From assembly GCA_031553555.1 (NCBI GenBank), contig JAVBLL010000008.1, positions 149,202 to 213,201 of the forward strand: a stretch of DNA of 64,000 nucleotides, written 5' to 3'. The stretch's first letter is position 1; the number at the start of each line of letters is the position of its first letter. Below, one piece after another: positions 9,513-51,250 of this stretch. The DNA comes from Bacilli bacterium (GTDB lineage Bacteria > Bacillota_I > Bacilli_A > ML615J-28 > CAG-698). A program made the position numbers and the translations under genes. Below the pieces are notes generated by a model that ran no database searches, was not told the origin of the DNA, and was given only the letters and a program-made list of their open reading frames with translations.

Positions 9513-9536
9513 ACTCCTTTCATATATTATATTGGG

Positions 9537-9947: not shown

Positions 9948-9951
9948 TAAA

Positions 9952-10001
9952 AAATGATATTTCTATGTATTAAAAAATACAAAGAAATATCATTTTTTAT
10001 T
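9952..10001 (+). terminator. Rho-independent terminator
   Basis: AATGATATTTCT-17 nt loop-AGAAATATCATT perfect 12-bp stem followed by TTTTTATTT. Confidence 0.5.
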
Positions 10002-10071
10002 TATAATCGTCATTATTTACAAATGATTAATAATATGGTAAAATAGTAATTAACAAAATAGAGGTAAAAAT

Positions 10072-11307: not shown

Positions 11308-11322
11308 TATTTATTAATTAAT

Positions 11323-11366
11323 AAAACCCTAAACGAAAGTTGATACTTCGTTTAGGGTTTTATTGA
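11323..11366. terminator. Bidirectional intrinsic terminator between convergent rarA and lipoprotein gene
   Basis: AAACCCTAAACGAAAG-ttgat-ACTTCGTTTAGGGTTT hairpin flanked by A/T runs on both sides. Confidence 0.55.
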
Positions 11367-11395
11367 TTTTGTTAATTATTTAATATATTCTAATA

Positions 11396-23554: not shown

Positions 23555-23672
23555 AGACCTCCATACAGAGATCCGCTATATTAACAGCGGAAGAATAGAA
23601 AAACCGCCACTATGTGTTCGTCCGTATCTTATCCTAAATACAGCACTTAACGCTTTTCCACTATTTCTGTTA
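23555..23672 (-). ncRNA. Tetrahydrofolate (THF-I) riboswitch-like 5' leader
   Basis: Minus-strand leader AGAAAUAGUGGAAAAGCGUUAAGUGCUG…UAGGAUAAGAUACGGACGAACACAUAGUGGCGG…CCGCUG. It contains the conserved GCGUUAAGUG, GGAU, ACGAA/GGCGG and 3' CCGC(U) pseudoknot-partner segments of the THF aptamer. Followed by the GGAGG RBS. Confidence 0.55.
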
Positions 23673-34061: not shown

Positions 34062-34748
34062 TTAATAAGTTGATTTAAAGAAAACAAGCATTTTTTCAAT
34101 TTTAAATTCTTTATGTTCTTCAACATATATTTGATAATTAAGTTCTTGAATAAAATTAGAGGACACCTTATCATCATATGTACTAATTAACTTTGAAAGA
34201 CTTAAACATGAAAGTTGAAAGAAAATTGTCATTGTGCTCCCAGGTGCAAGACCATCATATGTGAAGAATGGCGTTTTAAAACTACCATCTGATTTTATCA
34301 GATTAGGCATATACTGTCCGCCTTCTACTTCTACTATATTATCCGGTTCTGAATCAAGACAATATCTAATATTTTCAAATGCGAATATTTTAATTAAAAC
34401 AAAGCCAGCCACATCACTAACGCCTAGTTCAACCTTAGATTTTACGCTACCTGTGTTTTTAACAACAAATTTATAGCTAAGTACTTTGCCAGAAACAACT
34501 AAAGCGTTATTAGTGACATCGCTTGATACATATTTATATATATCCTCCCCGTTTTCCTGGTCTAAAATACCATCTAGATTATTATCTAAGCCAACATACA
34601 AATCAGCTGTTCCAGAGACGTCACCGCTAACTACTACTACTTTTTGGGTTTCTTTGATTAAAGGCATCCATGCATACACAACCATAACAAACAAAAATAA
34701 AGTTGCGAAAAGACTGAAAATTGAAAATATTAATTGTTTTTTCGTCAT
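34062..34748 (-). CDS. Small TasA/camelysin-like secreted protein with SipW-cognate-type signal peptide (last gene of operon 1)
   Basis: 228 aa. N-terminus KKQLIFSIFSLFATLFLFVMVVYAWM has a hydrophobic core followed by a (T/V)YA(W/Y) motif, as in the TasA/CalY signals (GGGTFAYFSD). The mature part reads VSGTADLYVG… YKFVVKNTGSV, paralleling TasA ASGTLDL… FQFENNGSL. Confidence 0.45.
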   Translation of the reverse strand: MTKKQLIFSIFSLFATLFLFVMVVYAWMPLIKETQKVVVVSGDVSGTADLYVGLDNNLDGILDQENGEDIYKYVSSDVTNNALVVSGKVLSYKFVVKNTGSVKSKVELGVSDVAGFVLIKIFAFENIRYCLDSEPDNIVEVEGGQYMPNLIKSDGSFKTPFFTYDGLAPGSTMTIFFQLSCLSLSKLISTYDDKVSSNFIQELNYQIYVEEHKEFKIEKMLVFFKSTY

Positions 34749-34752
34749 ATTA

Positions 34753-37700
34753 TCAACTTCCTTTCTCTATCATTATTTGACGATAGGCAATTGTATTATC
34801 ACTTAATGACGTCACTTTTAAATAAACAGCGAAAGCATTGCCAACAGCGCTTGCTGTAATTGCAAAACTTTGAACATTACCAGTTGTATTTTGAGAATAA
34901 ACAAAGTCATCAGTAGTCAATAGAATTTCTATAGTATATTTTGGACTAACATCTTTTTGATTCATATTAATATCAAAATTACCTAAATTAATAATTCCAT
35001 CTGCAGGAATAATTTTATCATAACATAAAATAGCATTAACAGCTCTATGAACAGCCAATTCACTATTACCAACAACTATTAGAGCATTGTTTGTGTTATA
35101 TACAATGACTTTGCGTTCCAATAATTCAATGTAAGTCGCCTTATTCAAAGCGCCATTTGTTCCATAGGCATCAGCAATTGTAACATCATCTTTGCTACTA
35201 TCATAAAGTCCCTCAACAGTATTAGCAGCAACAATATTATTACCAACATAAGCATATTTTAAGTTCGACAATCCTAATAATGGACTAAAAATTGCGATTT
35301 TATTATTTTCTATATTTACCTCTACTAAAATAGGCATTTTTTCGATACCACTAATATCACTTAAATTAGTTTGATTATTTAAGCTTATCTTTTTGATTTT
35401 TCGATAAAAATACGAATTGCTACCATTTAATAAAGATGTAATACCATTATACGATAAATCTATTTCTTCCAATTCTATTAACTGTTGAAAAACTATCAAA
35501 TCAGAATCAATAAGCCCACAATTACTAGCATACATTTTAACAATTTTCAAACCTGAAAGGTTTGCCAACTTATTAGTTCCTGTTAATGGATTATTATTTA
35601 AATTAAGAATAGATAGTGATGTTAAGTATTGCATCCCGCTAAGATTTTTGATACTCAAATCACTAATATCAAAATTGTCAATCAAGATAACAGAATCACG
35701 AAAAACATAATTAAATAATTCATTATTATTTTGTAATCTTCCCCAAATAGTTTCGCTATAAATACCAGCTTTATATTGAAGGATTTTGGATTTTATGGCA
35801 TTATAAAGATTAGTATCTTTATATGGTTCACCATCACCCAAACGATAAATTCCAGGAATCGTAAAGTAATATTCTTGAACTACTTTCGCTTGATTAGGAA
35901 CAATAATATTTGCAGTTATACTAATAATAGTGTTAGTAGTTGGAATAAAGTTTTTGTTAATAATTATTTGAACCATATTTTCTGTTTGAATAATTGAACA
36001 AAAACTCAAACCTTTGCTATCATCTGCAAATTCCAATTCCACTTCTATTTCATTTAATTTACGTTCAAATTCAAAACCAGTTATAGTATACGCATTATTT
36101 GTAAATACACTTTGCAAAATTTGTTGCATATTGACCAGTTCATCATCACCACCACTACCACCTTTGGCAGGTATTGTAATGTTATATAAATGTTCTGTAA
36201 CCGTATTATTATTCCATTTAACCGTAACTTTTAAATCTAATTTTTGTTTTTCAGTAATTTGAAAGTTTAAAAAACTGGAAACTTTAACACGATCAGCAGT
36301 TGGATCAGTAAAATCAAAAATTAAACGATTGTAAAACTGCTCTGATAACGTTTGATCTGCAATAAATTCATCAGTATCTTCATTTAAATTATAAGCTACG
36401 ATATCGTATTCTACACTAGCGATTCCAAATAATAATTTCAAGTCAGTAGTAAATAAATCATAAAAATCTTTTTCAACAAAATATACTGGACCAAAAGCCG
36501 AATTTAATTGTTTTTCTTTTTCAGCTTGGGTGCATCCTTCAATTGTAATTGTTAAAACTTTAGTTGCAGTATTAGTAGTATCTTTCTTTGAATAAGTTAC
36601 TTTTATATCAATATTAGTATCAATAATAGCCGACCTAATCAAATTCATTATATTAGTATTAGAATCGTAAACAACTAATTTATTACTGCTCAATTCATAA
36701 TTTAATGTCATATCTTCATCAAACATACTGACTGCAGGAAGCATTATTCCCGCAGGAAATGATCCTCTGTCCATAATGCTATAAATAATTCGGTTGATTT
36801 CACGAATAGTTTGGTTAAATATACAATCATCCGTATTTCCCACTATGACTAAATTATAATCCATACTAGCATTTTCAAATGCTGAAACAGGTGTGTCATT
36901 ATACTTCAATGAAACCGTTAAGACAACATCTCTATCAGTAGACCCCCTAGTAATATGACCATTTGCTTGTAAATAATCAATATTAGAGGAACTATAATTA
37001 TATGTAATTGGATAATTGAAAAATGTTTTTGGTAAAACGATGTCATCCATAATAGCATATTTAGTTGTATTATTTTCCACGAAATCATATAAAAACAAGC
37101 TTTTCAAATATATTTGTGCAGCCTCAGCCGCAAAAATAATTTTATCTTCACTAGCATTACTAAAAACATCAATAAAGTTTGATGAATTAGATATTAAATT
37201 CATATCACTAAAATTATAAAAACAATTTGGGGCGCTAATTTTTAAGATTTCATTATCATTATCAATTCCACCACCACTAAGAGCATTAATATAATATACT
37301 CCATAATAATGATGTTTTATGTTTACTGGAGCTGATAAAACTAATGTATTATCAAGCAAATCAATTGTTGATGGAAGGTTAATGACTAATTCATCAACTA
37401 TCTCTAAGTCATTCAATAAAATAAAATGTGGTATTCTAGTTTTTGTAGATGATTTATCATTTAAACTAAAACTATTTAAATGTTTACGAATATCAAATTC
37501 TTTATTAATATAACAATTTGTTGATTGCTCATCTTTGCTAGATTCTCTATATAAAACATAAACGCTTAAGTTAGCATCAGCAATTTCGTTATTAGTTGAA
37601 TTGATTATATTTAAATCAATAGTGACCTTATTCTCAATATTAGGTTTTAATTCACTTTCACTTTCATAAAATAAAACAGTTTTATTTTGAATCATCACCA

Positions 37701-38007
37701 TTGAATTATCTTCATATTCAATTTCCATTCCATTGACATTTGTTTTTAAAACAATATCATAATAAACTTTTACATCTCCTGTATTATATAAATCTATTGA
37801 ATAATTAATAGATGAGGAGGATGAAATTGTTGGTAAAGATATTAAATCATAATAATTATTTGAATCATTAATTGTTAATTTGTAATTCCCTGTACTAATA
37901 TTATACTTTTCGCTTATTGCCACTTGAACAAAGACATCCGCAGCATAAACGATAACAGCAGATAATACAATCGTTAGAAAAACCATTAAAACTTTTTTCA
38001 ATTTCAT
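34753..38007 (-). CDS. Giant secreted protein: TasA-type signal peptide + TasA-like N-domain + internalin-type leucine-rich repeats
   Basis: 1084 aa. N-terminus MKLKKVLMVFLTIVLSAVIVYAADVF, then INYSIDLYNTGDVKVYYDIVLKTN (TasA-like strand pattern). LRR block (LSILNLNNNPLTGTNKLANLSGLKIVKMYASNCGLIDSDL… LSYNGITSL… LSDISGIEKMPILVEVNIENNKIAIFSPLLGLSNLKYAYVGNN). No LPXTG. Confidence 0.55.
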   Translation of the reverse strand: MKLKKVLMVFLTIVLSAVIVYAADVFVQVAISEKYNISTGNYKLTINDSNNYYDLISLPTISSSSSINYSIDLYNTGDVKVYYDIVLKTNVNGMEIEYEDNSMVMIQNKTVLFYESESELKPNIENKVTIDLNIINSTNNEIADANLSVYVLYRESSKDEQSTNCYINKEFDIRKHLNSFSLNDKSSTKTRIPHFILLNDLEIVDELVINLPSTIDLLDNTLVLSAPVNIKHHYYGVYYINALSGGGIDNDNEILKISAPNCFYNFSDMNLISNSSNFIDVFSNASEDKIIFAAEAAQIYLKSLFLYDFVENNTTKYAIMDDIVLPKTFFNYPITYNYSSSNIDYLQANGHITRGSTDRDVVLTVSLKYNDTPVSAFENASMDYNLVIVGNTDDCIFNQTIREINRIIYSIMDRGSFPAGIMLPAVSMFDEDMTLNYELSSNKLVVYDSNTNIMNLIRSAIIDTNIDIKVTYSKKDTTNTATKVLTITIEGCTQAEKEKQLNSAFGPVYFVEKDFYDLFTTDLKLLFGIASVEYDIVAYNLNEDTDEFIADQTLSEQFYNRLIFDFTDPTADRVKVSSFLNFQITEKQKLDLKVTVKWNNNTVTEHLYNITIPAKGGSGGDDELVNMQQILQSVFTNNAYTITGFEFERKLNEIEVELEFADDSKGLSFCSIIQTENMVQIIINKNFIPTTNTIISITANIIVPNQAKVVQEYYFTIPGIYRLGDGEPYKDTNLYNAIKSKILQYKAGIYSETIWGRLQNNNELFNYVFRDSVILIDNFDISDLSIKNLSGMQYLTSLSILNLNNNPLTGTNKLANLSGLKIVKMYASNCGLIDSDLIVFQQLIELEEIDLSYNGITSLLNGSNSYFYRKIKKISLNNQTNLSDISGIEKMPILVEVNIENNKIAIFSPLLGLSNLKYAYVGNNIVAANTVEGLYDSSKDDVTIADAYGTNGALNKATYIELLERKVIVYNTNNALIVVGNSELAVHRAVNAILCYDKIIPADGIINLGNFDINMNQKDVSPKYTIEILLTTDDFVYSQNTTGNVQSFAITASAVGNAFAVYLKVTSLSDNTIAYRQIMIEKGS

Positions 38008-38018
38008 CTCTCCTTTCT

Positions 38019-41000
38019 CTATTTAATTTCTATAAATATAGTACGTTCCATACTAACTTCAGCATTTTCTGAATTTATGAAGTTCACACGAACAGCAATT
38101 TTCGCAAAAGGCGTTTCATCAGTAAATGGTATTATTTCCATAACATTATCCTCAATTTTAATATAGGATGATGTTTCCACTATATTATATTTTATAGCAT
38201 ATTCCTGACCGCTGTGGTTAATAGAACTATTCAAGTTAACTTTATAAACTCCATTAACAATAGAATCTTTATTAATTGTAATTATAAAGTTATCAGTATC
38301 AAAACTTGCTATGCCAGTATTTGAATCAGGCAATTCTATTTTACTTAAAATTTCAGCGGCAACAACCGATCCAGTGACACTAATAGTTGGTACAGTTATA
38401 GTTACAGTAGGACGATATAATTTAAACCAATAATATAGATAAGCATAATTTTGAGTATCCAATATATTATTTGTCTGAGCAGTATTTAAAGTAATTGATG
38501 TAATCTTAGAAAAATGCGTCAATAAAGTTATATCTGGCATTAGTCCAAAACAAGTGAAGGTTGTTAAAGAATCTTTTGAACCTTCTAAAGGACGAAGATC
38601 AATAACACCAATATGACCAATATTAATAGTACTTGAAATATACATTGAAAATGTTACTAACTTCATATTTTTAATTGGAGTTAAATCGACAGCCTGAGTA
38701 TTAATTAGCGTCAATGATGTCATATTCTTAAAAATTTCTAAGCCTTTAATACTAGTAATTGTATAACCACTATGAGTACCCGATGTTTCACCAGTATAAC
38801 TAAAAACTGTATACGCCAAAATTTCTACTTGTGATAAAATATATTTATTACTAACTTCACCAACATCTTCAATATCAGTAGTTCCTGTAATATTACTATT
38901 GCAAGTAGCTGTATTCATAAGAATAGCAATTAAGTTCATATCTTCAAACACATCTTCAGCCTTCTCATATGTATCAGTTGATGTTTCAATATAGTATTGG
39001 TCAAAAATATAAGATGTATCTTCTTCGTTTAATGTGTAACAAGTAGTATTACCTAAATCCTTACCAGTAGCATTACTATATACAACTTCATTATTGCATT
39101 TTACGGCAGTAATTTTTGGACTTATTATGAATGAAACTGCATCTAAAGTACCAATATTTAATATATATCTTTGATTAGTTGCATCAGCTGTTAAAGTAAC
39201 TCCAGCCTGAGCAGTAGTATAAGATAAATAAAATTCATAATTACCTAAAGTTATAACACTTGGCAGATAATAATCATTGTTTTGAGCGAATTTCTTATTA
39301 TAACTTATAGTATCAGCTGTAGTCATACCAAGCGTATATCGTAAAGCCGCCAAAAACTGAGCAGCACTAGCTGTAGTAGTAGCATTTGCACTATCATATA
39401 TCATATAACGATAAACCAAACTATCTAAATGTTCTTGATAATTATCAAAATATGTATTTACATAATAAAGCGTGCTCGCTGATGTATATCTTCGATAAGA
39501 AAGATTAGTTGTATAAGTATTAATTGATTTTGCGCCATTACTAGTACTAATATTAAACAACCCTTTTGTTAAACTAAGCATCTGTGGAATATAGTTATTA
39601 TCAAGTTTTGGATAATATATATAATTATTATACTGAAAATTAACCAACTTTGTAAGTCCAGCAATGTATTCCATTGAACTCTTATTTGATGAATCCTTAT
39701 CCTTAGCAAGATCAATTGAATTAGTATTTGTCAGATTTAAAGTAGTTAAGTTAGCATAATATTTTATATTAACCAAACTTTTTAATTGTTGACATCCTGT
39801 TAAGCTTAATGTTGTAATAACAGATTGATTGCTTGCATTAAGATATGGAATAGGGATTTCTGTTATCCTTTGACTTTGCAAAGTAACACTAGTAATTTTT
39901 TTGAAATATTCAATTCCCTTTAAATTAGTCCAGCCATTATTATGTTGCGCTGTGACACCAAAGACAGTTCCTGCAGTAATCGATGTTATACCATCGCAAT
40001 TAGCTATTGTAAAAGTATTATTCGCAGGATTTGGTGTATTTGCCAATAAACGTCCTAATAAATAGTTACTGAATGCCTCATCAGGGAAAGCCGTTCTATT
40101 TGATAAGGATATAACTTGAACTGTTGGGCTGCCATCGGCCTGATATTGAATAAAATATTCATCAGTAGTTGAAGCAGCATTAGTTTTGCTAAAATTTAAA
40201 GTAATATACAATGCTACATCAAAGCCATTATAGAAATTAATACTTGCATTAGTTTTAATAATACCTGTAACAGTAGAGAAATAACTTGTAGTACCATAAA
40301 CTGTGCCTGCCGGAAACATTAAATAATCATAATAAGTGATATTCAATAAAGTATTGCTATCAGAATATAAAGTAAAATAATTAGTTTCATTACCATTAGT
40401 TCCTCTGACATTGACAATATATTCAGTTTTTGGTGTTAATTTTTCTAAATCATAAACTGGATACCCTTCTACTAATGCAGCATAGCCATATCCTGAATTC
40501 AAAGTTTTTATTCCATTAACTAAAGTATAATACTCATAAGTATAACGATATTTATTACTAACATATTGAATTTGATAGATATCTTCAAAAGTATTAATTA
40601 TATAATCAAGTTTAGTTAATAAATTTTCACCTGCAGTTGCAGTTCCACCGTTTGTTGATAAAGCAAAATTCAAGCTAGTCGAACTCATGCCCTTTTCAGT
40701 AACTAATATATCAACTAAATCTCTCATAATATAAATACCTGTAATTGAGGCGGATATATTAGTAAAACCTAAATTTAATGTATTTAGCAATACTATACTA
40801 TTATCATTACAATCATTTTTCAAAGCAATTAAAGAATCTATGTCAATACCATAATTGTAACTTAAATTAAGTGAAGTTAACGTATTAAGACAATTTTTAA
40901 AGACTGTTGTTAAATCACTTTGACTAGTATCAATAATTGTGTCTATGGCATTTTGAGATAAATTAACAGTAACTAAATTTATCAATTTTTTTATTGATGA

Positions 41001-44000
41001 TATATCAGAAATACTATTATTATAAATAGTCAACGTAGTTATTTGAGGCATTTTTTCAAGTGGCGTAATATCAGCAATAAAATTACTATACAGTGATACG
41101 CTGGTAGCACTAGTAAACATTTGAATACCCGAAATATCAGTTAATCCTTTTGTATTTAATGATATTGATGCAATACTACCTATACCCGTAGAAGCTTTCG
41201 AAGCCTCAACATCAGTATAACTATATGAACCAAAGATATTACCTACTGAATTATAAGTGACGTTGGCAAGAACGTTATACATTAATGTCTTCTCTTTAAT
41301 ATTAGCAATTGTATAATAGTCATAAGCATATAAATTAGCATTCACAGTATAATTGCCAGTTACAACGGCATTACCAAAGGTAACTGTATTATCAATACTA
41401 ACCGTTTTTATAATATACTTGTTCATAGCTGTTAAAGTAGGCACTTTTTGAAAATATGTATTATTAGTCTCGTTTTCTGTATATGCAAGCGAACCGCCAT
41501 GAATAAACATATATCTAAACTTAAGAACATTAGTACTACTTAAAGCATAATCAAGTTCCAAATTATACCCAATAACCGCAACAATAGATATTGCAATATC
41601 AATCAATGGAGTAGCAGTAATATCTACTACATAGTACTCTTCGTCATTGATTTCAACAACTCCCATATTTGATAAATCAAACAAAGCAACGTAAGTATCA
41701 TCCTCAACAAAAATAGATTGTTGAGTAGTTCTATTTCCAGCATTGGCAGCTGAAGATTCATAGAAATATTGAATTTCATATTTAACATTTTTATCATTTA
41801 CATAACTACTATCAGCATCACTAGATGTAGCCGTTCTCATAGCATAAACATATTTTGGCAAGTAAACTTTATCTCCTGCCTTCAACATATGTTGCTGAGT
41901 AATACTGCCATCAGCTTTTTGATATACTAAACTGTCATATGCAATATAATTATTTGAGCCATTCTTTTTAATGAACGGTTCAATTCCCGTAATAGCATTT
42001 TTCAAAGTCAACCATGATTCTTGACGAATAACTAAAAGTTCCTCATCATCATCATCAATTTCATCAGTTTGTTTTGTATTTGCATCATAAAATCTAAAAT
42101 CAAGTTCACGATCAGGAAAGGTTTTTCTAATATTATTATATAAAGATATGAATCTATCGATATTTGATTGGTAAGTTAAAGCTACCGTATTACCATATAA
42201 ATATAAAGTGTTTAGGTTAATGTTAGGTTTTTCTCCTTCTTCTAATCCGTTAAACTTTTCGTTAAAAGCTGATAAGAAAGACATTATATAAATATTACAT
42301 GTTGTAACTTGCAGTTTTTCTAATTTAGAAAAACTACTAATACTATTTTCAACAGAAATATATTTACAAGCATCAAAAATCATTATTTTTAATTGGTTAT
42401 TTAATGAGTCTAAACATGCTGTTGACATAGTTGTATATTTAATTGTTAATGATGTAATTTTAGACCCAGTATAGGCCATATACAATTCAACATCATCATA
42501 TGCAAGATTTGTCATTCTAAGTAAAGTCACTGTTGTAAGATTAGTTAATAATTCTAACCCTTTTATTGGCGACAAATGCATGCCATCTTCGCCCATTACA
42601 TCAGTTCCACCTTCTACACTAACAGATGTAATATATTGTAAACTATTACTATCAACAAATAAATATCCAGTATCATCATCAGTTTGAATAGTACAATTAT
42701 CAATAATTTGATAACGTAAGCTTCTATTTGGGAAAGCTTCATTTAATGGAATAAAACTACCATCATCCGCCTTATACATTAACTCATCATTATATTCTAA
42801 ACGAACTTCAATATAATATGTGAATGTTAAATCATATGATTTGGCATTTGTATTAGCCATAGAAATATAAAAAGACGTAGTATATGGAAAACATTTTGTC
42901 AAAGTAATACTGGCATCAGTTCCACCAACATTCAAGAAACTACTAACATCAATTGTATTATACAATGAACTATACGCACAAACTATTGGAACCAATATAT
43001 ACGTATCGTATGCTTCCACTCTCAATTGATTATTAGCAGCAATAACATATTTTTGGTTAAGTTTACTCAAACAAATAATTGATGGTAAATTAAGTAACGT
43101 TCTTTGAAGTGGAATTAACCATGGATTCCATATAACGGTATTACTATCTTTATATATTTTAATACCTTCATTATTAGTGTAAACCATGAACAATCCAGTC
43201 AATACTTTTTCATCCATCAAGCCAAAGGAACCATATACATAAAATGTTTCCAAATTTTCAAGTGATGCTAATATTGAATAATCAAAACGAGCATTATTAA
43301 CGTATAAATTTTTCAAATAAACTAGTGCATTAATTTCATTAAAAGCATTATTAGGATTATCTAAATTATTATTTCTGACATCCAAATTTTGAATACAATT
43401 TACAAAATAATTTAATCCCGTCAAATCCATAATACCTCTACTGTTTAAATCAAGAGAAATCAGATTAGTTGGATTTAAATCATCTTGTGACAATACATAT
43501 TTACCAGGAATAGTAGTTCCATTTATTATGAAATCACCATCATTATCAGTATTAAATGTATTAAATAAGATATTTCTTAAAATTGTATCAGGAATAGCTT
43601 TCTCTAAAGAAATAAATTCACCATCAGGAGTTTCAATAAAATAAGCAGGATCTTCAAGCGCTTTAACACTAACTTTAATCAATCTATTAATAGTACTTGT
43701 TCCTGATGCAAAACCAGTAACTGTAGCATATAAAAAGATGTCAGTTTCACCAATTTGATTGTAAATATGATATTCACGATTAATGATTTTTAAAATCAAT
43801 TCATCACTACTAGTCCAGGCAATACCATATGTGGTAGTCTCCGTGGCATCTTTATATTTATATTCAGTAATTAAATTCATAACGTCATATATTGAGGAAA
43901 TTTCTTTAATGCCAGACAATATTTTTGCGGCAATCAATTCATCAGAACTTGGAATATATTTCGTAGATGTGCTTTGGATATATATGCTAATGCTATCATT

Positions 44001-46673
44001 ATTATTGTATAACAAAGCATAGTAATATCGATTACTAGGGGATAAAATAAATGTATCCGATGTTGAACGAACAATATATAATGTTGTCAAAGAAGTCATA
44101 TATTCAAGTGGAGAATAATCCTGAATTAGATTAGATGATAAATATAATGTTTTTATACCTGTCAAATATTTTATTGGTTCAAATGAATATATAATATTGG
44201 ATGTTAAATTCAAAGTTTCTAAATTATCCAAATTCGCTAATGGAGAAACATCGGCAATTTGATTAGTCGATAAATTTAAAGTTGTCAATTGATACATTGT
44301 ACTAAGCGGTGTTAAATCAACGATTGCATTAGTTGACAAATTTATATTGACACAACCAGTTAAAAATTCAATTCCTTTTATGTTTTTAATAGCTTGACTA
44401 TTGATATTTATAGCTGTTGTTTTTGTAACACCAAGTTCATGAACTGTTAGCCAACCATCTTTATCTGTATCAAAATTATTAATAATATATAAATATAATT
44501 TTTCATCAGGAATATCATCAATATCATTATGAATTAAGCCAGTAATCTTAAAATTAATTTCAAAACGTTCATCGTTAACATAACAAACAAAATATACTTC
44601 AGTAATTTTATTTGGTAAATTAGGTTTTTTGAAAACAACCATCATTTTTCCATCAATTTCTTGAATAGAAAAATAATCTTTATAAATTGCTGGAACGGCA
44701 TCATCAAGATATTTAATTTGATATTTATTGTCAATTGATGAAGCAATTTCAAAATCCTTATATACATCTTCTTTCGGAATATATTGGTTTAATGCGTTAA
44801 ATACATTAAGTTTTTCTACAGTTTGAGCATAGCCAATAACTATAATTTCATTTTTAACAACATAAGTTCCATGTTCATAAACAAAAGTAATGGTTACTGG
44901 CATACTAACACTTGCCTGATTAACCGGTTTATTTAACAAAACAATTTGATTATTAACCATACCAATAAACTTTATAGAACTATCAAATATATCTGTATTA
45001 TTAGTATAATCAATATTATAACTGACACTTAACAATTGTGTCTTTTCTAATAAACTTGTGTTATTAATGTTATTACCTAGAACATCATACTTATCCCCTT
45101 CTTTATCTAATATAATTGTATCGTAAATATTTGGATTGATTAATTCAGTGCAATAAATCGCATTTAAAATATTAACTTTAACAATCTTTTCAGCATATGA
45201 AGTCATACCATTTTGTTCAACCATAACACGTATAGTTACATTTTCATAACCATAATGATCAAATATCTCATAGCCATTACGAAGATAAACACCATTACCA
45301 TCAATTAAATTCAAATTATCAGTTAACCAAGTGTAATAGGCATTGTAAGCAGGGTCATATACCTTTAAAAATAAAGAACTATCAATCGTATCTGGAATAT
45401 TGTTAATGGCATTATCTGCTAAAGACTGAGCCCCAGTGCCAAGCACAACCACAAAGCGATTATTTATTGATTCAGATTTGTTATTAGTTGCACTACTATC
45501 AGTACAAACAATTGTAAAATCAATTTCTTTTAAATTTGTATAAGGAGTCTGATTGATTTTAAAGTTATAGACATTATCAACAGTAATATACTTTTTCATT
45601 TCGGTTGATAAATTATAAACTACTAACTCTTTAACAATATAATATTCAATATTTTTAGAAATATCTAATTTCGTTGATAAATTCTTCTTTTCTTCAATAC
45701 TAATCAATTCTTTAATATAATCAATCATAGCATCATAATCATAGTTAGTAATTTCAATCAAACTAGAATCCGCAAACAATTTATCAATTTCCATAAAACC
45801 ATTTTCTACGCTAATCTTTACTTTTCCTTTTTCGGCAGCCGTGTCGACTAATACATCGGCAGATGAAGTTTTTCCAGAAAATCTAGACAAGGAATCATAG
45901 AATTTGGCTTTTAATGGCGTACTAGTATCACCATAATCAAAAATTATATCATGACCGTTTAAATCAATTTTTTTATTATTAAAATCAAGAGAAATTTTTT
46001 GTTTAATTTCCAAATCAGCGTCTAAAGTAACATTTGATAATAATCTCAAAACGGGCGTAGTAAAAGTCACTGGCGTTTCATTTAAACTTTTGATTGTTGA
46101 TTTTAATGACGCTAAACTTGTTATATAGTAAATACCATATTGAGAAATCAAGTCTTCTTCTAATATCATTGTGGCTATGACATCAATTTGCAATGTAAAC
46201 TCTTGCCCTTGATAATACTCTCCAGCACCAGCTGAATATACGAACTTGAAATAATATATATCATATTCACTACCACTCAAGATATTATTATAATCATTTT
46301 CATAATCTGCAATATCACTTAACATGCAAACAAACTGGTATTCTCCATCTTGTTTTAAATGCAATTCAATTGCTCTTGGCAATTCATCATTTTCAGAAAT
46401 ATTAAAAACCATTTCATAAAGATACGCAGTAATACCCACATTTGCTACCTTTACTTGAAATTCATAATAATCTCCCGGTTTCTCTAAACGAACATTTTTT
46501 GAATTAATGTGATTTACATCTACATTATCATTAACGCTTAAGACAATAGTTTCAACTTTTATTACTTGCTCATTACCTTCTTTTACATAAAGAAAATAGG
46601 CATATGTCAATGTAGAAAAAATTAAAATCATCATAAATGAAATAAATAAAAAGAATAAACTTCTATTTTTCAT
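38019..46673 (-). CDS. Giant (2884 aa) secreted protein: TasA-type signal peptide, TasA-like N-domain, multiple LRR arrays and beta-rich repeats
   Basis: N-terminus MKNRSLFFLFISFMMILIFSTLTYAYFLYVKEGNEQ. VRLEKPGDYYEFQVKVANVGITAYLYEMVFNIS matches the TasA LSNLKPGDKLTKDFQFENNGSLAIKEVLMALN pattern. At least three LRR arrays (e.g. LTPLSTMYQLTTLNLSTNQIADVSPLANLDNLETLNLTSNIIYSFEPIKYLTGIKTLYLSSNLIQDYSPL; ADITPLEKMPQITTLTIYNNSISDISSIKKLINLVTVNLSQNAI). No LPXTG or other cell-wall anchor. Confidence 0.55.
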   Translation of the reverse strand: MKNRSLFFLFISFMMILIFSTLTYAYFLYVKEGNEQVIKVETIVLSVNDNVDVNHINSKNVRLEKPGDYYEFQVKVANVGITAYLYEMVFNISENDELPRAIELHLKQDGEYQFVCMLSDIADYENDYNNILSGSEYDIYYFKFVYSAGAGEYYQGQEFTLQIDVIATMILEEDLISQYGIYYITSLASLKSTIKSLNETPVTFTTPVLRLLSNVTLDADLEIKQKISLDFNNKKIDLNGHDIIFDYGDTSTPLKAKFYDSLSRFSGKTSSADVLVDTAAEKGKVKISVENGFMEIDKLFADSSLIEITNYDYDAMIDYIKELISIEEKKNLSTKLDISKNIEYYIVKELVVYNLSTEMKKYITVDNVYNFKINQTPYTNLKEIDFTIVCTDSSATNNKSESINNRFVVVLGTGAQSLADNAINNIPDTIDSSLFLKVYDPAYNAYYTWLTDNLNLIDGNGVYLRNGYEIFDHYGYENVTIRVMVEQNGMTSYAEKIVKVNILNAIYCTELINPNIYDTIILDKEGDKYDVLGNNINNTSLLEKTQLLSVSYNIDYTNNTDIFDSSIKFIGMVNNQIVLLNKPVNQASVSMPVTITFVYEHGTYVVKNEIIVIGYAQTVEKLNVFNALNQYIPKEDVYKDFEIASSIDNKYQIKYLDDAVPAIYKDYFSIQEIDGKMMVVFKKPNLPNKITEVYFVCYVNDERFEINFKITGLIHNDIDDIPDEKLYLYIINNFDTDKDGWLTVHELGVTKTTAININSQAIKNIKGIEFLTGCVNINLSTNAIVDLTPLSTMYQLTTLNLSTNQIADVSPLANLDNLETLNLTSNIIYSFEPIKYLTGIKTLYLSSNLIQDYSPLEYMTSLTTLYIVRSTSDTFILSPSNRYYYALLYNNNDSISIYIQSTSTKYIPSSDELIAAKILSGIKEISSIYDVMNLITEYKYKDATETTTYGIAWTSSDELILKIINREYHIYNQIGETDIFLYATVTGFASGTSTINRLIKVSVKALEDPAYFIETPDGEFISLEKAIPDTILRNILFNTFNTDNDGDFIINGTTIPGKYVLSQDDLNPTNLISLDLNSRGIMDLTGLNYFVNCIQNLDVRNNNLDNPNNAFNEINALVYLKNLYVNNARFDYSILASLENLETFYVYGSFGLMDEKVLTGLFMVYTNNEGIKIYKDSNTVIWNPWLIPLQRTLLNLPSIICLSKLNQKYVIAANNQLRVEAYDTYILVPIVCAYSSLYNTIDVSSFLNVGGTDASITLTKCFPYTTSFYISMANTNAKSYDLTFTYYIEVRLEYNDELMYKADDGSFIPLNEAFPNRSLRYQIIDNCTIQTDDDTGYLFVDSNSLQYITSVSVEGGTDVMGEDGMHLSPIKGLELLTNLTTVTLLRMTNLAYDDVELYMAYTGSKITSLTIKYTTMSTACLDSLNNQLKIMIFDACKYISVENSISSFSKLEKLQVTTCNIYIMSFLSAFNEKFNGLEEGEKPNINLNTLYLYGNTVALTYQSNIDRFISLYNNIRKTFPDRELDFRFYDANTKQTDEIDDDDEELLVIRQESWLTLKNAITGIEPFIKKNGSNNYIAYDSLVYQKADGSITQQHMLKAGDKVYLPKYVYAMRTATSSDADSSYVNDKNVKYEIQYFYESSAANAGNRTTQQSIFVEDDTYVALFDLSNMGVVEINDEEYYVVDITATPLIDIAISIVAVIGYNLELDYALSSTNVLKFRYMFIHGGSLAYTENETNNTYFQKVPTLTAMNKYIIKTVSIDNTVTFGNAVVTGNYTVNANLYAYDYYTIANIKEKTLMYNVLANVTYNSVGNIFGSYSYTDVEASKASTGIGSIASISLNTKGLTDISGIQMFTSATSVSLYSNFIADITPLEKMPQITTLTIYNNSISDISSIKKLINLVTVNLSQNAIDTIIDTSQSDLTTVFKNCLNTLTSLNLSYNYGIDIDSLIALKNDCNDNSIVLLNTLNLGFTNISASITGIYIMRDLVDILVTEKGMSSTSLNFALSTNGGTATAGENLLTKLDYIINTFEDIYQIQYVSNKYRYTYEYYTLVNGIKTLNSGYGYAALVEGYPVYDLEKLTPKTEYIVNVRGTNGNETNYFTLYSDSNTLLNITYYDYLMFPAGTVYGTTSYFSTVTGIIKTNASINFYNGFDVALYITLNFSKTNAASTTDEYFIQYQADGSPTVQVISLSNRTAFPDEAFSNYLLGRLLANTPNPANNTFTIANCDGITSITAGTVFGVTAQHNNGWTNLKGIEYFKKITSVTLQSQRITEIPIPYLNASNQSVITTLSLTGCQQLKSLVNIKYYANLTTLNLTNTNSIDLAKDKDSSNKSSMEYIAGLTKLVNFQYNNYIYYPKLDNNYIPQMLSLTKGLFNISTSNGAKSINTYTTNLSYRRYTSASTLYYVNTYFDNYQEHLDSLVYRYMIYDSANATTTASAAQFLAALRYTLGMTTADTISYNKKFAQNNDYYLPSVITLGNYEFYLSYTTAQAGVTLTADATNQRYILNIGTLDAVSFIISPKITAVKCNNEVVYSNATGKDLGNTTCYTLNEEDTSYIFDQYYIETSTDTYEKAEDVFEDMNLIAILMNTATCNSNITGTTDIEDVGEVSNKYILSQVEILAYTVFSYTGETSGTHSGYTITSIKGLEIFKNMTSLTLINTQAVDLTPIKNMKLVTFSMYISSTINIGHIGVIDLRPLEGSKDSLTTFTCFGLMPDITLLTHFSKITSITLNTAQTNNILDTQNYAYLYYWFKLYRPTVTITVPTISVTGSVVAAEILSKIELPDSNTGIASFDTDNFIITINKDSIVNGVYKVNLNSSINHSGQEYAIKYNIVETSSYIKIEDNVMEIIPFTDETPFAKIAVRVNFINSENAEVSMERTIFIEIK

Positions 46674-46691: not shown

Positions 46692-47393
46692 TTAATTTGC
46701 AAATATTTTAATAGATTTTATAGTCAAAGATTGAAATTGATAACGATTATCTCCATCATCAAAATCTAAATTTTCTTTTGAAACAAACATAATGCTGAAA
46801 ACTAATTCATGTGTACTGCCAGATGGCAAAACCAAATCACTTAAAAACGCTTCATTAAGTTCATAGTATTCTTCAACTTCACTTTCAACATCATCAATTT
46901 TACTACTGATCACATGAATCTCCATTGTTTCTTCAATTGGATACTCAGGAACATAATTACCATCATCATCTATGTAATAATATCCTGGAATGTATTGGAT
47001 GCCATCAAACCTATTTACGTACAAATAATCATCTTCTATTCCGTCATATACCATATTAGAGTAATATTCAGTCAAACTCATTTTCAATTTATATGCCATA
47101 TCGCTTTTTGAGGTAGTGATTAATTTAAATAAATATTCTTGCTCTGGAACAATATATTGTAGTTTAATATCTTTTGTAACTGCTGACCAGTCATTTATAT
47201 CATTATCCCATGAATATAGTGCGCACTGTATACTTTTCTTTTCTAAATCTTCCGTATCAATAGGAATACCATTTATTTTTGCTTTTTCATATATCGTTAT
47301 CCAAGCAAATGTCAACATTAAAAACATCAATAACGCAAAAACAACTGAAAATATTGATAAAATAAATTTTTGATTAATTTTCTTTTTAGTCAT
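46692..47393 (-). CDS. Membrane-anchored/secreted protein with SipW-cognate-like N-terminus (first gene of operon 1), function unknown
   Basis: Start MTKKKINQKFILSIFSVVFALLMFLMLTFAWITIY (the 5' extension in the ORF track overlaps the leader RNA). GGAGGG RBS. Acidic, Tyr-rich soluble part. Confidence 0.4.
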   Translation of the reverse strand: MTKKKINQKFILSIFSVVFALLMFLMLTFAWITIYEKAKINGIPIDTEDLEKKSIQCALYSWDNDINDWSAVTKDIKLQYIVPEQEYLFKLITTSKSDMAYKLKMSLTEYYSNMVYDGIEDDYLYVNRFDGIQYIPGYYYIDDDGNYVPEYPIEETMEIHVISSKIDDVESEVEEYYELNEAFLSDLVLPSGSTHELVFSIMFVSKENLDFDDGDNRYQFQSLTIKSIKIFAN

Positions 47394-47404
47394 ATTCCCT
47401 CCAT

Positions 47405-47498
47405 AAAAAAAATGCCAGTACACATAATTCCTATGCAACTGGCTATCTATTTCAGACCCTTTAGTTTTGCGTCATCGCCTTTCGACGATTTTGCCTCT
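47405..47498 (-). ncRNA. c-di-GMP-I (GEMM)-like riboswitch element, copy 1, with intrinsic terminator abutting the RBS
   Basis: Minus-strand RNA: AGAGGCAAAAUCGUCGAAAGGCGAUGACGCAAAACUAAAGGGUCUGAAAUAGAUAGCCAGUUGCAUAGGAAUUAUGUGUACUGGCAUUUUUUUU. GGCAAA–hairpin with GAAA tetraloop–GACGCAAA(G/A)C core as in the Vc2 GEMM aptamer (GGCAAACCAUUCGAAAGAGUGGGACGCAAAGCC), and a UAG(A/G)UAGC 3' segment. The terminator hairpin GCCAGU…ACUGGC plus U8 lies directly before the GGAGGG RBS. Confidence 0.5.
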
Positions 47499-47522: not shown

Positions 47523-47613
47523 AAAAAAAGCCAGCACACATAATTATATGCAACTGGCTATCTATTTCAGACCCTTTAGTTTTGCGTCATCGCCTTTCGA
47601 CGATTTTGCCTTT
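47523..47613 (-). ncRNA. c-di-GMP-I (GEMM)-like riboswitch element, copy 2 (tandem, upstream of copy 1)
   Basis: Identical to copy 1 over the ~60 nt of the aptamer core; ~95% identical over the whole element. Differences are confined to the terminator loop and closing pair (A→G giving G·U). Confidence 0.5.
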
Positions 47614-47639
47614 ATTCTAATATTCATTTTATTACTATT

Positions 47640-47771: not shown

Positions 47772-48590
47772 TCAAATATTAGGATTAAATAGTACATTAA
47801 TTTTTTTAATCTCCATCATTTGATATTTAAAATGATTGCTATCAAAAGTTTTATTACCATCACCGTCATAACCACTAACTATAGGATCAAAAAATACATC
47901 AAAAAAAACAATTAAATGTGATTGCTGTGTACTTACTTCATCAATCTTTATTCCTGATATTAAGTTATAACTATTTTTTATATTTGGACTAATATTCTCA
48001 TCAGCAAAAGGAGTATCAACAGCAAAATCAATTAAATACTCTGTTTTATTTAAGCCATTAACGTCTATAATATCAATCTCATTATCACCATTTATATAAA
48101 TAGCTCTAGTCAACATATATTTAAACGCATATCTAATATCATTTCGTGAATCCCCAATTTCTCTATCAATAACATTGTTAATATTTGTTAAATTAATAAC
48201 TATTGATCCTTTACTTTTTTCAAAATTTTCAATACCAATAGCAAATGAAAATCTATCTCCTGGAGCGGCTTGAACTTGAGAGGTTCCAAAATCAAATAAA
48301 TTTGTAACAGCAGGATTCGTTATTAATTCATATACTTGATCATTTTTATTTATATCCGCTTCATCATAAATATTATTTATTAAAGATATTTCGGAATCAA
48401 TGGCGCCAATTCTGGCGCTATCATGATAAACATATAAATCAAGTTTTAAATTAAACCCATTAACCTCATTAATGATAGAAATCTCAGCAGTATCAAGCAA
48501 AGTAAACCAAGCATAAACAACAAAAACAACAGCAAATGAAGCTAATACAAGAGAAATAATTGAACCAATAAATTTTTTTCTAATATTCAT
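47772..48590 (-). CDS. TasA/camelysin-like secreted protein with SipW-cognate-type signal peptide (last gene of operon 2)
   Basis: 272 aa. MNIRKKFIGSIISLVLASFAVVFVVYAWFTLLDTAE… FNLKLDL… AAPGDRFSFAIGIENFEKSKGSIVINLTNI parallels TasA AAFND…GTLDL…LKPGDKLTKDFQFENNGSLAIKEVLMALN. Confidence 0.5.
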   Translation of the reverse strand: MNIRKKFIGSIISLVLASFAVVFVVYAWFTLLDTAEISIINEVNGFNLKLDLYVYHDSARIGAIDSEISLINNIYDEADINKNDQVYELITNPAVTNLFDFGTSQVQAAPGDRFSFAIGIENFEKSKGSIVINLTNINNVIDREIGDSRNDIRYAFKYMLTRAIYINGDNEIDIIDVNGLNKTEYLIDFAVDTPFADENISPNIKNSYNLISGIKIDEVSTQQSHLIVFFDVFFDPIVSGYDGDGNKTFDSNHFKYQMMEIKKINVLFNPNI

Positions 48591-48598
48591 TATATCAC

Positions 48599-51250
48599 CT
48601 AATCCAAAATAAGTAGTCTTGTTATATAAACACTTGAGTCGCTCTTATTATAAATTCTTAATATTACTGCATGCGGTCTTCCAGTTGTACTTACAGCGGT
48701 CATTTCTGTTATAGTATATCCATATGTAGTACTAAAAGGAGTTGCATTCAAAAATGGTGTCAAAGTATTTGTAGCATTTGCATAACTATTATTTCTACGA
48801 TAGATTATTCCACTTAAAGTTTGTTGCAAAACTAATTGAGCTGCAGTATAACTAAAAGTTGTAGTGTTCGTAATATATATTAAAACACCTTTTTTAGCAA
48901 GAAAAATGAATGAATATTTATTATATAAACCATTCGTCCCATAATTAGTATCACTAGTATAATTATTATAAACTTTTATCTCCGTCAAATTTGAAAATTC
49001 TTCTAAAGAATAGAATAATTCTATATTGTTATTAGAAATATCCAATTTCTTGATTTTTGATAAACTACTAAGATATGATAAATGTAGTGTTGTTAAGCTA
49101 TTACCAGATAAGTTAAGACCTTCCAAGGAAACAAGACTATTGATAATAGCAAAATTCCTTGTAATATATGTAGCATTGGTGAAATTTTGATCAGATAAAT
49201 CTAAATATTTAGTATTATCTAAATATTGTAAACCCTCAAAATTCGCAATTCCTGTATATCCACTTAAAGAAAATATTTCTCTATTAACTGCTAATTGATT
49301 TCTAAGTAAGATTCCATCTGTTATATCGCCATATGCTTTTAATAGTGCATTATATAAATTATTATCAATAACATCTACACCATTATGGATAAAGCCTTGA
49401 ACAAGAACTCTAGAATATGGAAAATCAGATACTTCTTCATAATCATCTCTTGTATTTAATTTGAAAGAAAAGATTATTTCAATATATAAATCAGTAAGCG
49501 GCACTTTATCCCAATCAAAGGTAAAGTCAAAATGTCCATCTTCACTATTATAAGTAATAGTTAAGAAATTCAAGGCACCAGTATATTTATTATTTTGATC
49601 TATCCAAGCTACCAAACGATAACGAAATTTACAATTTAAATATTCACTAGGCATTTCAAAATCATGATGAGTATCTAAACCAGTTTTTTCTATAAGTAAA
49701 GAATTCAAATAACGATAATAGTCAATATATAAATCATTTGGACCAATATCATCAGTAGGAGCCCCGATATCACCAAATGGGTCATAGGCAATACCAACTC
49801 TTCTCACCACTGTAAGTGGTATTCCATCACTAAACTTAAATTCCATAGACAAAAATATTTGATTAATAACAGATGGGGGATTACTCTTATCTACTGTTAA
49901 GATAGTATATGTCTTTCCATCTAATGCCACTTCTTTAATAATATATGATCCATATGAATCGCCAATAATTGAATAGGAAATTTTGTCTAATTGATAACCT
50001 GTAAAATCTGATGCTGATGGCAAAATAAAGATGTTTTCTAAACTAATGTCACCACTTGTTCCTGTCATTGTTTTAATATTATTAAAATAAATATTTTGGT
50101 CGCCATCCTTTACAACATACAAATATCCATCTTCTATGAAGGTTGCTATTAATTCATCTGCTCTTTCAAAGTTTGAAGTAGCAAGGATTTTTTTAAATGT
50201 CACTGTGAGAGAAATACTTCCACTTGCATTAATGATTTTTACTAGAACTATTTTTTCTAATGATAATGTATTATAATCTAAAATATAGTTCTCCACATCA
50301 GATGATGAGTATGTATAAGTTAAATTACCATAACTATAATTTTTAATTAACTGAATGTCCGATTTTATTTCATAATATTGTAATGTCTTATTCCAAAATT
50401 CAGAAATAGTTTCATAGAATATATTCTTACCAATTGTCAGCCAATAACTATGATCTTTATTCAAAATATTAAACGCATATTCTTCAGAATAGACATTATT
50501 ATTTTGGAAAGTAAGTTCTAATGTTAAAACCACTTCCTCAATACCGTTACTAGCAACTATCCCACTAACATTAACAGCACCATATGAACTCAAAACATTT
50601 TCCTTATTGGATGTATATTTAAATTCAACTGGGTAATTGTAATAATTAAAAACCAAAGGAATATCATCGTGATAATAATTCTTTGATAAATCAGCATAAA
50701 CTACTTCTTCAATATATTTAAATATCTTAGTCGATAATAAATCCGAATCAAATGACTGATATGTAACAATAATATTTGTTTTAATTAACTCATTATCAAT
50801 TTGAATAAACGCATTAGGCGTATTAATCATAATATTACTACTATTTGCTGCAGAATTTTTGATGGAGCCATTAGTAATCCATAAAATTGTTTGATAATAA
50901 TTTTCAAATGTTATACTATGACCATTTAAATCCAAACTATAACTATTTAAATTAATATTAATATCACTAGTAATAATTAAGTCTTTTGTTAATTGGATAT
51001 TATTATTTAATTTCACTACTTTTCTATCTTTTAGCTGGCTAATTAGTTTTGAGTCATTCCACTTGCTTGCACTAGCTACTAATCTTAAATCTTTTTCATT
51101 ATTAATAGCAATAATTGTCTGGTCACCTGATGCACTTAATTCCATATTATAAAAATCTGTTATTGTTGAAAAATATGCATAAGTCATAATGCATGCAAAA
51201 GTAATCGTAATAATGATAGTACATATTAATAAAATGCTTTTTTTCATCAT
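48599..51250 (-). CDS. Large (883 aa) secreted protein with TasA-type signal peptide and C-terminal LRR array
   Basis: MMKKSILLICTIIITITFACIMTYAYFSTITDF. Beta-helix-like LDLNGHSITF segment. LRR block LQYLDNTKYLDLSDQNF… LEGLNLSGNSLTTLHLSYLSSLSKIKKLDISNNNIELFYSLEEFSNLTEIKVYNN. Start overlaps the upstream stop (ATGA coupling). Confidence 0.5.
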   Translation of the reverse strand: MMKKSILLICTIIITITFACIMTYAYFSTITDFYNMELSASGDQTIIAINNEKDLRLVASASKWNDSKLISQLKDRKVVKLNNNIQLTKDLIITSDININLNSYSLDLNGHSITFENYYQTILWITNGSIKNSAANSSNIMINTPNAFIQIDNELIKTNIIVTYQSFDSDLLSTKIFKYIEEVVYADLSKNYYHDDIPLVFNYYNYPVEFKYTSNKENVLSSYGAVNVSGIVASNGIEEVVLTLELTFQNNNVYSEEYAFNILNKDHSYWLTIGKNIFYETISEFWNKTLQYYEIKSDIQLIKNYSYGNLTYTYSSSDVENYILDYNTLSLEKIVLVKIINASGSISLTVTFKKILATSNFERADELIATFIEDGYLYVVKDGDQNIYFNNIKTMTGTSGDISLENIFILPSASDFTGYQLDKISYSIIGDSYGSYIIKEVALDGKTYTILTVDKSNPPSVINQIFLSMEFKFSDGIPLTVVRRVGIAYDPFGDIGAPTDDIGPNDLYIDYYRYLNSLLIEKTGLDTHHDFEMPSEYLNCKFRYRLVAWIDQNNKYTGALNFLTITYNSEDGHFDFTFDWDKVPLTDLYIEIIFSFKLNTRDDYEEVSDFPYSRVLVQGFIHNGVDVIDNNLYNALLKAYGDITDGILLRNQLAVNREIFSLSGYTGIANFEGLQYLDNTKYLDLSDQNFTNATYITRNFAIINSLVSLEGLNLSGNSLTTLHLSYLSSLSKIKKLDISNNNIELFYSLEEFSNLTEIKVYNNYTSDTNYGTNGLYNKYSFIFLAKKGVLIYITNTTTFSYTAAQLVLQQTLSGIIYRRNNSYANATNTLTPFLNATPFSTTYGYTITEMTAVSTTGRPHAVILRIYNKSDSSVYITRLLILD

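Follow-up and report, generated by a model that had tools for sequence, protein, structure and literature searches.

A candidate c-di-GMP-controlled fibre locus of the TasA/SipW kind with giant leucine-rich-repeat proteins in a Bacilli bacterium

Within a 64,000-nucleotide stretch of a Bacilli bacterium genome (GTDB lineage Bacillota_I; Bacilli_A; ML615J-28; CAG-698; contig JAVBLL010000008.1, positions 149,202 to 213,201 of the forward strand; hereafter the window), we found a seven-gene, two-operon surface-protein cluster on the minus strand (34062-54282). The reading we favor is that this locus encodes fibres of the TasA/SipW kind that are induced by cyclic di-GMP (c-di-GMP), and that its giant leucine-rich-repeat (LRR) proteins are adhesins attached to these fibres; we put the probability of this reading at roughly 0.45. 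The initial annotation had singled out two minus-strand open reading frames (ORFs) of 2884 (38019-46673) and 1084 (34753-38007) amino acids as giant LRR proteins whose first domain looks like a TasA fibre subunit. Both ORFs exist, and both peptides quoted from them were found in the translations. They are genes 5 and 6 of the cluster and are called E2884 and F1084 here. The first operon consists of A1011-B883-C272 and the second of D248-E2884-F1084-G228, as follows (↓ marks the predicted cleavage site).

51247-54282, minus strand: A1011, ORF, likely true gene 51247-54258; signal motif TYG↓WI
48599-51250, minus strand: B883; signal motif TYA↓YF
47772-48590, minus strand: C272, small TasA-like subunit; signal motif VYA↓WF
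46692-47438, minus strand: D248, ORF, corrected gene 46692-47393; signal motif TFA↓WI
38019-46673, minus strand: E2884, giant LRR protein of 2884 amino acids; signal motif TYA↓YF
34753-38007, minus strand: F1084, large LRR protein of 1084 amino acids; signal motif VYA↓AD
34062-34748, minus strand: G228, small subunit and last gene of operon 2; signal motif VYA↓WM

Two of the mechanically assigned starts, the ATG at 54282 (A1011) and the TTG at 47438 (D248), are probably wrong. The likely start of A1011 is the ATG at 54258, which is preceded by an AGGAGG ribosome-binding site and gives a protein of 1003 amino acids. For D248, the extension from the TTG overlaps a riboswitch terminator and a ribosome-binding site (GGAGGG) precedes the ATG at 47393, and the true gene therefore starts at this ATG and encodes 233 amino acids.

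All seven products carry an N-terminal hydrophobic segment ending in (T/V)(Y/F)(A/G)↓(W/Y/A), followed by F, I, M, or D; the variants from A1011 to G228 are TYGWI, TYAYF, VYAWF, TFAWI, TYAYF, VYAAD, and VYAWM. This signal motif, which was defined after it had been seen in the cluster, was present in all seven cluster genes and in none of the 38 other ORFs of the window, other secreted proteins included. It lines up with the SipW site of TasA (TWA↓AF), with a small residue at -3, an aromatic residue at -2, Ala or Gly at -1, and a hydrophobic residue at +2. When the seven N-termini were aligned with the TasA precursor using hhalign, the cleavage motif, the first strand, and the PGD strand fell in register (E 9e-5, probability 59%, with part of the score coming from the hydrophobic segment). 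With the signal included, this alignment is suggestive of a relationship to TasA. Our TasA reference sequence is 100% identical to chain 8AUR_A.

The fold of one of the small subunits, C272, is predicted to be TasA-like. An exhaustive HMMER search with C272 returned 28 homologues of about 250 amino acids, and the family is marked by FAWF after the hydrophobic segment (the W at +1 is invariant and the A at -1 is found in at least 90%), by PGxRFSFAxKITN, and by a C-terminal NSNAFQNQxFxI. We modeled C272 with AlphaFold2 from the 28-homologue alignment (predicted local distance difference test score (pLDDT) 80.5, predicted template-modeling score 0.77) and compared the model with 350,542 PDB chains using Foldseek; the sole match at E ≤ 0.001 was 8AUR_A, the TasA fibre (E 8e-4, probability 0.98). 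Peptidase_M73 was the one Pfam family with matches in several members of the C272 family, namely in 2 of 29, both of them weak (best E 0.032). The other two small subunits are linked weakly to C272, D248 with a phmmer E of 1.5e-4 and a mature-domain z of 2.8, and G228 with a phmmer E of 1.9e-6 and a z of 2.4. D248 also has phmmer links to 300-amino-acid YAWF-motif proteins of two related loci, L003 and L005.

Members of the C272 family occur in ten GTDB loci from Acholeplasmatales, Izemoplasmatales, 'Tenericutes', and Bacilli metagenome-assembled genomes, where two to six small motif-bearing paralogues are followed by one protein of 2250-2390 amino acids. In L003, the gene after the C272 homologue encodes an archaeal/SipW-type signal peptidase I (75 bits with TIGR02228, whose cut-off is 51.85; SipW model, E 9e-16), and the same cluster holds a second, weaker copy of this SipW-like peptidase. 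Genes with the same SMEPT peptidase motif were recognized by eye in L004, L005, L007, L008, and L009. A closely similar arrangement was seen in L011, an independent Logan contig, in which the order small-giant-large is repeated (E 4e-32 for the match to residues 710-1205 of E2884 and E 2e-10 for the match to F1084), with a c-di-GMP riboswitch ahead and the motif variants LYAWY (small), AYAVF (giant), and TYAIN (large).

Several further features of these loci were recorded. The cluster-end proteins of L001 (12147-18929), L003 (13066-20229), and L006 (11880-18878) are 2260-2390 amino acids long and have no Pfam domain but one GLUG motif. Between the two SipW-like peptidase genes of L003, upstream of the C272 homologue (5727-11422), lies a conserved pair, also found in L005, L007, L008, and L009 and absent from the window; one member (514 amino acids) has a P-loop/AAA_22-like region, and the other (626 amino acids) is without matches. 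The L003 peptidase (10778-11422) has a weak NCBIfam match to Mycoplasmopsis agalactiae MAG0920_fam (E 0.028) and the N-terminus of B883 (48599-51250) one to MAG1140_fam of the same species (E 0.0046), which may hint at a related system in mycoplasmas. In L011 (Logan ERR14045517, 3990-4870), an in-frame stop and at least one frameshift separate a 501-amino-acid N-part from a 2052-amino-acid LRR part of the E2884 homologue; this break could reflect a pseudogene, phase variation, or an assembly error.

Both operons of the window are preceded by c-di-GMP riboswitches. The Rfam model RF01051 (c-di-GMP-I) gave three full-length matches above the gathering score of 35 in the cluster, one in the leader of operon 1 and a tandem pair in that of operon 2. 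The promoter-like sites listed with them, both close to a perfect sigma-70-like promoter, come from a scan that found no more sites than in shuffled sequence, and the operon 1 site rests on its position upstream of the riboswitch.

54442-54470, minus strand: operon 1 promoter-like site, TTGACT-17-TATAAT with an extended -10 TG; 11 of 12 consensus matches
54352-54426, minus strand: RS3, c-di-GMP-I aptamer in the leader of operon 1, upstream of A1011; RF01051 57.0 bits, E 1.6e-8
54323-54364, minus strand: RS3 terminator hairpin and U-run (ViennaRNA minimum free energy fold); its 5' arm is the 3' strand of P2
47640-47668, minus strand: operon 2 promoter-like site, TTGACA-17-TATAAT with TG; 12 of 12 consensus matches
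47546-47620, minus strand: RS1, first aptamer of the tandem pair; RF01051 63.8 bits, E 3.7e-10
47523-47559, minus strand: RS1 terminator hairpin and U-run, overlapping the 3' strand of P2
47431-47505, minus strand: RS2, second aptamer of the tandem pair; RF01051 61.5 bits, 96% identical to RS1
47405-47444, minus strand: RS2 terminator hairpin and U-run; the ribosome-binding site GGAGGG comes immediately after, and then the ATG at 47393

Comparison of the ViennaRNA folds with the RF01051 alignment revealed that the 5' arm of each terminator (AGCCAGU) is the 3' strand of the aptamer P2 stem. Since the terminator and P2 share this strand, a P2 stabilized by the ligand should prevent termination, and RS1, RS2, and RS3 are thus predicted to be ON switches. 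The association also holds outside the window: RF01051 gave 13 further matches in 8 related loci, and in 8 of 8, L011 and a further contig (L012) included, the first small motif gene is immediately preceded by the riboswitch, as a tandem pair in L003 and L005.

The four large proteins combine the signal motif with beta-rich or beta-helix-like segments and LRRs. The parts of E2884 are the following.

46599-46673, minus strand: signal peptide, residues 1-25; predicted cleavage TYA↓YF, by analogy with TasA TWA↓AF
46158-46598, minus strand: N-domain, residues 26-~172; predicted 8-strand beta-sandwich (pLDDT 54)
45684-46091, minus strand: LDLNGH module, residues ~195-330
44067-44444, minus strand: LRR array 1, residues 744-869; canonical 22-residue internalin-type repeats, with an internalin_H region at 752-869
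40794-41135, minus strand: LRR array, residues ~1847-1960; canonical 22-residue internalin-type repeats

Further, degenerate LRR arrays of E2884 lie near residues 1100, 1424, and 2248-2330. The LRR arrays claimed for both giants are borne out in E2884 by Pfam LRR_4 (50.4 bits against a cut-off of 27, in 5 stretches), while F1084 scores below that cut-off (16.9 bits) and its repeats, at residues ~776-945, are clear by eye. The match of E2884 to the InlH/InlC2 model NF033188 is partial, at 89 bits against a cut-off of 1050, which does not place it among the class 1 internalins. Following the N-region, all four large proteins have the LDLNGH module, which is probably a pectate-lyase-like beta-helix adhesive domain, judging from its homologue P0030 (residues 194-301), which scored 20.6 bits (E 5e-4) with Pectate_lyase_5 (PF20585), below the 24.3 cut-off; the window proteins themselves were not matched by this model. 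A1011 has a beta-rich N-domain, homologous to that of E2884 (A1011 15-446 against E2884 1-463, E 3e-6), and then a beta-helix-like module and LRRs. In F1084, cleavage is predicted after residue 22 and is followed by a beta-rich N-region (23-~160). B883 has the signal motif and a short post-signal segment, and passes without a beta-sandwich N-domain straight into the LDLNGH beta-helix-like module and LRRs.

Database searches with these proteins returned few relatives. When the seven proteins were scanned against Pfam and NCBIfam, the matches were to LRR models only, and no internal protein repeats were found in E2884 at E < 1e-3. A word-indexed search with residues 1-330 of E2884 found no homologue, and neither did a genome-contig scan with residues 1-503 or two metagenome scans find relatives. 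Sequence searches of the PDB (phmmer and profile, with C272, E2884 1-251, and two alignments) gave nothing meaningful. A search with the alignment of the four N-termini returned P0030 only, and a search with P0030 returned P0031 only, so the N-region family of the giants is very rare. As the initial annotation had stated, the giants lack known surface anchors: Pfam and motif scans detected no LPXTG motif and no SLH, LysM, or choline-binding match.

Two other kinds of pilus were considered. We rejected the idea that the N-terminal helix is type IV pilin-like, since the hydrophobic stretch is not preceded by a conserved G/A↓F site, Glu is missing at +5, and the peptidases found with the family are of the S26 type. 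A sortase-assembled pilus was rejected as well, for lack of an LPXTG motif.

We hypothesize that the locus works as follows. A rise in c-di-GMP would load the leader riboswitches, one before A1011-B883-C272 and the tandem pair before D248-E2884-F1084-G228, and binding would keep P2 closed, so that the overlapping terminators are blocked and both operons are transcribed. All seven products would then be exported by the Sec pathway and cut after (T/V)(Y/F)(A/G) by a SipW-like archaeal-type peptidase, presumably encoded elsewhere in the genome. C272, D248, and G228 would polymerize by donating the new N-terminal strand to the next subunit, as the fold match of C272 leads us to infer. A1011, E2884, and F1084 would bring the same signal, a strand segment, and a beta-sandwich N-domain, and B883 the strand segment only. 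Through their N-terminal ends, the four large proteins may join or cap the fibre and display the beta-helix module and LRR arrays away from the cell, in what would amount to a tip-adhesin logic. With its strand segment but no acceptor domain, B883 would be the strongest candidate for an initiator or tip protein resembling TapA or TafC.

A number of results weigh against this reading, and most of them concern the giants. The initial annotation had assigned a TasA core pattern to both, and this assignment did not hold up: in Smith-Waterman comparisons of the mature N-domains with TasA, z was 0.5 for E2884 and 1.5 for F1084, and the observed scores were reached by 80 of 300 and 27 of 300 shuffled sequences, respectively. 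The same domains are also at chance against C272. Using hhalign, comparisons of mature domains across the subfamilies and TasA were not significant, the best local match always being the PGD...N.G strand (E ~0.01), a motif that is present also in beta-sandwich domains of the DUF11/DUF7507 type. No match to PF12389 (Peptidase_M73) at E ≤ 1 was obtained for any of the seven window proteins, and none of the seven N-termini was reported by TIGR04088 (cut-off 19 bits) at E ≤ 10, when the TasA control scored 38 bits and an L003 paralogue 9.2 bits. The model of E2884 1-197, of low confidence (pLDDT 54) and built from an alignment of 3 sequences, predicts a beta-sandwich and matches generic carbohydrate-binding module (CBM) and immunoglobulin (Ig)-like beta-sandwiches and no TasA. 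A TasA/camelysin jelly-roll at residues ~30-250 of the giants, as had been proposed, thus found no support in sequence or profile tests, which were negative or at chance.

The processing enzyme and the conservation of the giants count on the same side. A scan of every frame of the 64 kb found no S26 catalytic motif, and the part of contig L013 that was inspected past the start of the window showed no signal peptidase either. The giants of the other related loci begin with ordinary signal peptides and are not homologous to E2884; a giant with a fibre-type signal is specific to the window and to L011 and L012. It follows that physical attachment of a giant to the fibre is not conserved, and the giant gene looks like a conserved operon slot that is filled by different proteins. 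The broader proposal, that the giants belong to a TasA-like, SipW-processed fibre system, gains support from the motif common to all seven products, the match of C272 to 8AUR, the SipW-type gene of L003 with the similar motifs of other loci, and the riboswitches; no sipW gene was found in the window.

These observations bear on a first alternative, in which the giants are co-regulated with the fibres but are no part of them: they would have an uncleaved signal-anchor or an ordinary cleaved signal and be membrane-tethered or released LRR adhesins, and the small TasA-like proteins would form fibres or matrix separately. The hydrophobic segments are 16-20 residues long, which is enough to span the membrane, and in the AlphaFold2 models of C272 and E2884 the segment forms one long helix that continues through the motif. 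With no other anchor present, an N-terminal tether would explain how the giants are retained at the surface, and the giants' N-domains without a detectable TasA link and the motif-free giants of other loci fit this account as well. However, the motif obeys the -3/-1 rule of signal peptidases and matches the TasA site, and exactly this motif is found in the small TasA-like proteins, relatives of which adjoin SipW-type peptidases. Moreover, the conservation of A at -1 and of W at +1 in the C272 family exceeds what a simple membrane anchor needs. We regard a separation of giants and fibres as the main alternative, somewhat less likely than the favored reading.

A second alternative dispenses with the fibre altogether: the cluster would encode lineage-specific, c-di-GMP-induced secreted surface proteins with a common signal, the N-domains would be carbohydrate-binding or Ig-like, and the resemblance of C272 to TasA would be that of a generic jelly-roll. 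In its favor, the TM-scores of C272 against 8AUR_A are low (0.30/0.34), the next ranks of the fold search, with flocculin, cohesin, and CBM domains, follow closely (E 1e-3 to 1e-2), and no curated TasA-family model is matched. Yet TasA had been predicted in advance and ranked first among all the chains searched, dedicated SipW/archaeal-type peptidase genes lie within the homologous clusters, and each cluster has several small paralogues, as is typical of donor-strand fibres built from major and minor subunits. We consider this alternative unlikely.

That the giant ORFs are artefacts of mis-assembly or of fusion between neighboring genes is very improbable: the homologous giant gene of L011 is split by a stop codon and frameshifts, but in the window the reading frame of E2884 is unbroken with uniform composition over the region, the only DNA repeats within the 20.6-kb cluster are the riboswitch copies, no protein repeats able to drive mis-assembly were seen, and the N-terminal, middle, and downstream-gene parts are collinear with the independent contigs L011 and L012. 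As far as can be judged, the giants are thus genuine genes.

Beyond the single locus, we tentatively propose that low-GC Bacilli and bacteria like the Acholeplasmatales and Izemoplasmatales possess a branch of the TasA superfamily that has not been described before. It would be characterized by a FAWF-type signal, cluster-encoded archaeal-type peptidases, and obligatory c-di-GMP-I control, and in the lineage of the window giant LRR adhesins (to 2884 amino acids) would be plugged into the fibre by a pilin-like N-terminus. If this is true, the system would be a Gram-positive pilus that needs neither sortase nor chaperone, bears interchangeable giant adhesins at its tip, and is switched on directly by c-di-GMP. 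Attachment of the giants by their N-termini would give Gram-positive bacteria without wall anchors a route to display megadalton-scale adhesins at a distance, and would widen the TasA superfamily to uncultured, little-studied lineages of Bacilli and Mollicutes-like bacteria. Even when the data are read conservatively, the conserved pairing of a c-di-GMP-I riboswitch with this gene family annotates previously uncharacterized proteins. Together with its relatives, the locus forms a compact system that lends itself to testing: it has one RNA input (c-di-GMP), few small subunits, a dedicated peptidase in the relatives, and very large LRR proteins that share the signal of the subunits.

Elsewhere, the window has a GC content of ~28% and holds hrcA-grpE-dnaK-dnaJ. 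A 225-amino-acid sigma factor (58062-58739, plus strand) has an N-terminal hydrophobic extension resembling that of pro-sigma E/K, and a SpoIIIAH-domain gene lies just past the window start (L013, 7880-8443); both suggest an endospore-forming lineage. Together, low GC, the heat-shock genes, the extended sigma factor, and SpoIIIAH point to a low-GC, probably sporulating member of the Bacillota. In an identical-protein look-up, neither C272 nor the 215-amino-acid gene product at the window end was on record. The Logan accession SRR23967709 has part of the window in common. A tetrahydrofolate riboswitch (RF01831, 44.7 bits, gathering score 36; 23583-23671, minus strand) lies upstream of a 185-amino-acid multi-pass membrane protein (22991-23548), which is probably a transporter of the folate family. 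Two other large surface proteins are encoded, one of 978 amino acids (11396-14332, minus strand) that is of the lipoprotein type and contains about eight tandem copies of a ~46-residue helical repeat (...AIDEAKTAYNALTSDQKTLVTNYATLTSAETAL...), and one of 816 amino acids (20456-22906, plus strand); the C-terminal region of both resembles a right-handed beta-helix, and neither has a YAWF-type signal.

Each single part of the locus (a TasA-like subunit, SipW-type processing, LRR adhesins, and c-di-GMP-I riboswitches) is of a known kind. Their combination, namely a divergent TasA-like subfamily that curated models miss, an invariable c-di-GMP riboswitch, and four signal-sharing LRR proteins of 883-2884 amino acids, was absent from the literature we searched. 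To our knowledge, detailed insight into TasA-type donor-strand fibres comes from Bacillus and a few archaea only. The Bacillus subtilis tapA-sipW-tasA operon (8AUR, 5OF1) resembles the locus in having small beta-rich secreted subunits (the TasA fibre being the one that C272 matches), a signal ending in small-aromatic-Ala with a hydrophobic residue at +2, a signal peptidase of the archaeal type dedicated to the system (found here in the homologous clusters of relatives), and an accessory protein that shares the signal, which is TapA in B. subtilis and has been proposed to give the first donor strand. It differs in that PF12389/TIGR04088 matches and sipW are missing from the window and mature-domain similarity to TasA is at chance, in that three small paralogues and four large LRR proteins stand here in place of one TapA, and in that control is by c-di-GMP riboswitches rather than SinR/SlrR.

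The donor-strand pili of archaea, the haloarchaeal tafi (TafA/C/E/F and the TafD peptidase) and the Pyrobaculum ABP (AbpA/AbpB), likewise have several paralogous small subunits and a tip or initiator protein whose N-end resembles a pilin and whose distal domain is adhesive. TapA and AbpB have been proposed to supply the first donor strand, with their distal domains acting as adhesins (PMC9245690), and the tafi tip protein TafC consists of a pilin-like N-domain and an adhesin domain and its gene adjoins that of a signal peptidase belonging to the cluster (PMC11821415). Clusters that include a signal peptidase I gene are common to tafi and our related loci, and with the ABP our locus shares a TasA homology that is detectable by profile or structure comparison only. 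In contrast to the proteins of this bacterial locus, with 883-2884 amino acids and LRR arrays, the archaeal adhesins are ~38-45 kDa; tafi subunits use twin-arginine (Tat) export, and the archaeal systems are without riboswitch control.

With the internalins of the Listeria InlA/InlH class, E2884 has in common 22-residue LRRs, cap-like F/IPD..L segments before several arrays, and the partial match to NF033188 noted above. It differs from them in scoring far under the cut-off of that model, in lacking an LPXTG or GW anchor, in having about six diverged arrays in one chain, and in its N-terminal signal, beta-sandwich N-domain, and beta-helix module. Surface genes controlled by c-di-GMP riboswitches are known from other Firmicutes, among them pilA1 and CD2831 of Clostridioides difficile and a collagen adhesin of Bacillus thuringiensis with tandem riboswitches. 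The aptamer in the leader of surface operons, the predicted antitermination ON logic, and the tandem arrangement are features that the locus shares with these adhesin and pilus genes, while the cargo under riboswitch control is different, consisting here of TasA-like subunits and giant LRR proteins instead of type IV pilins or sortase-anchored adhesins.

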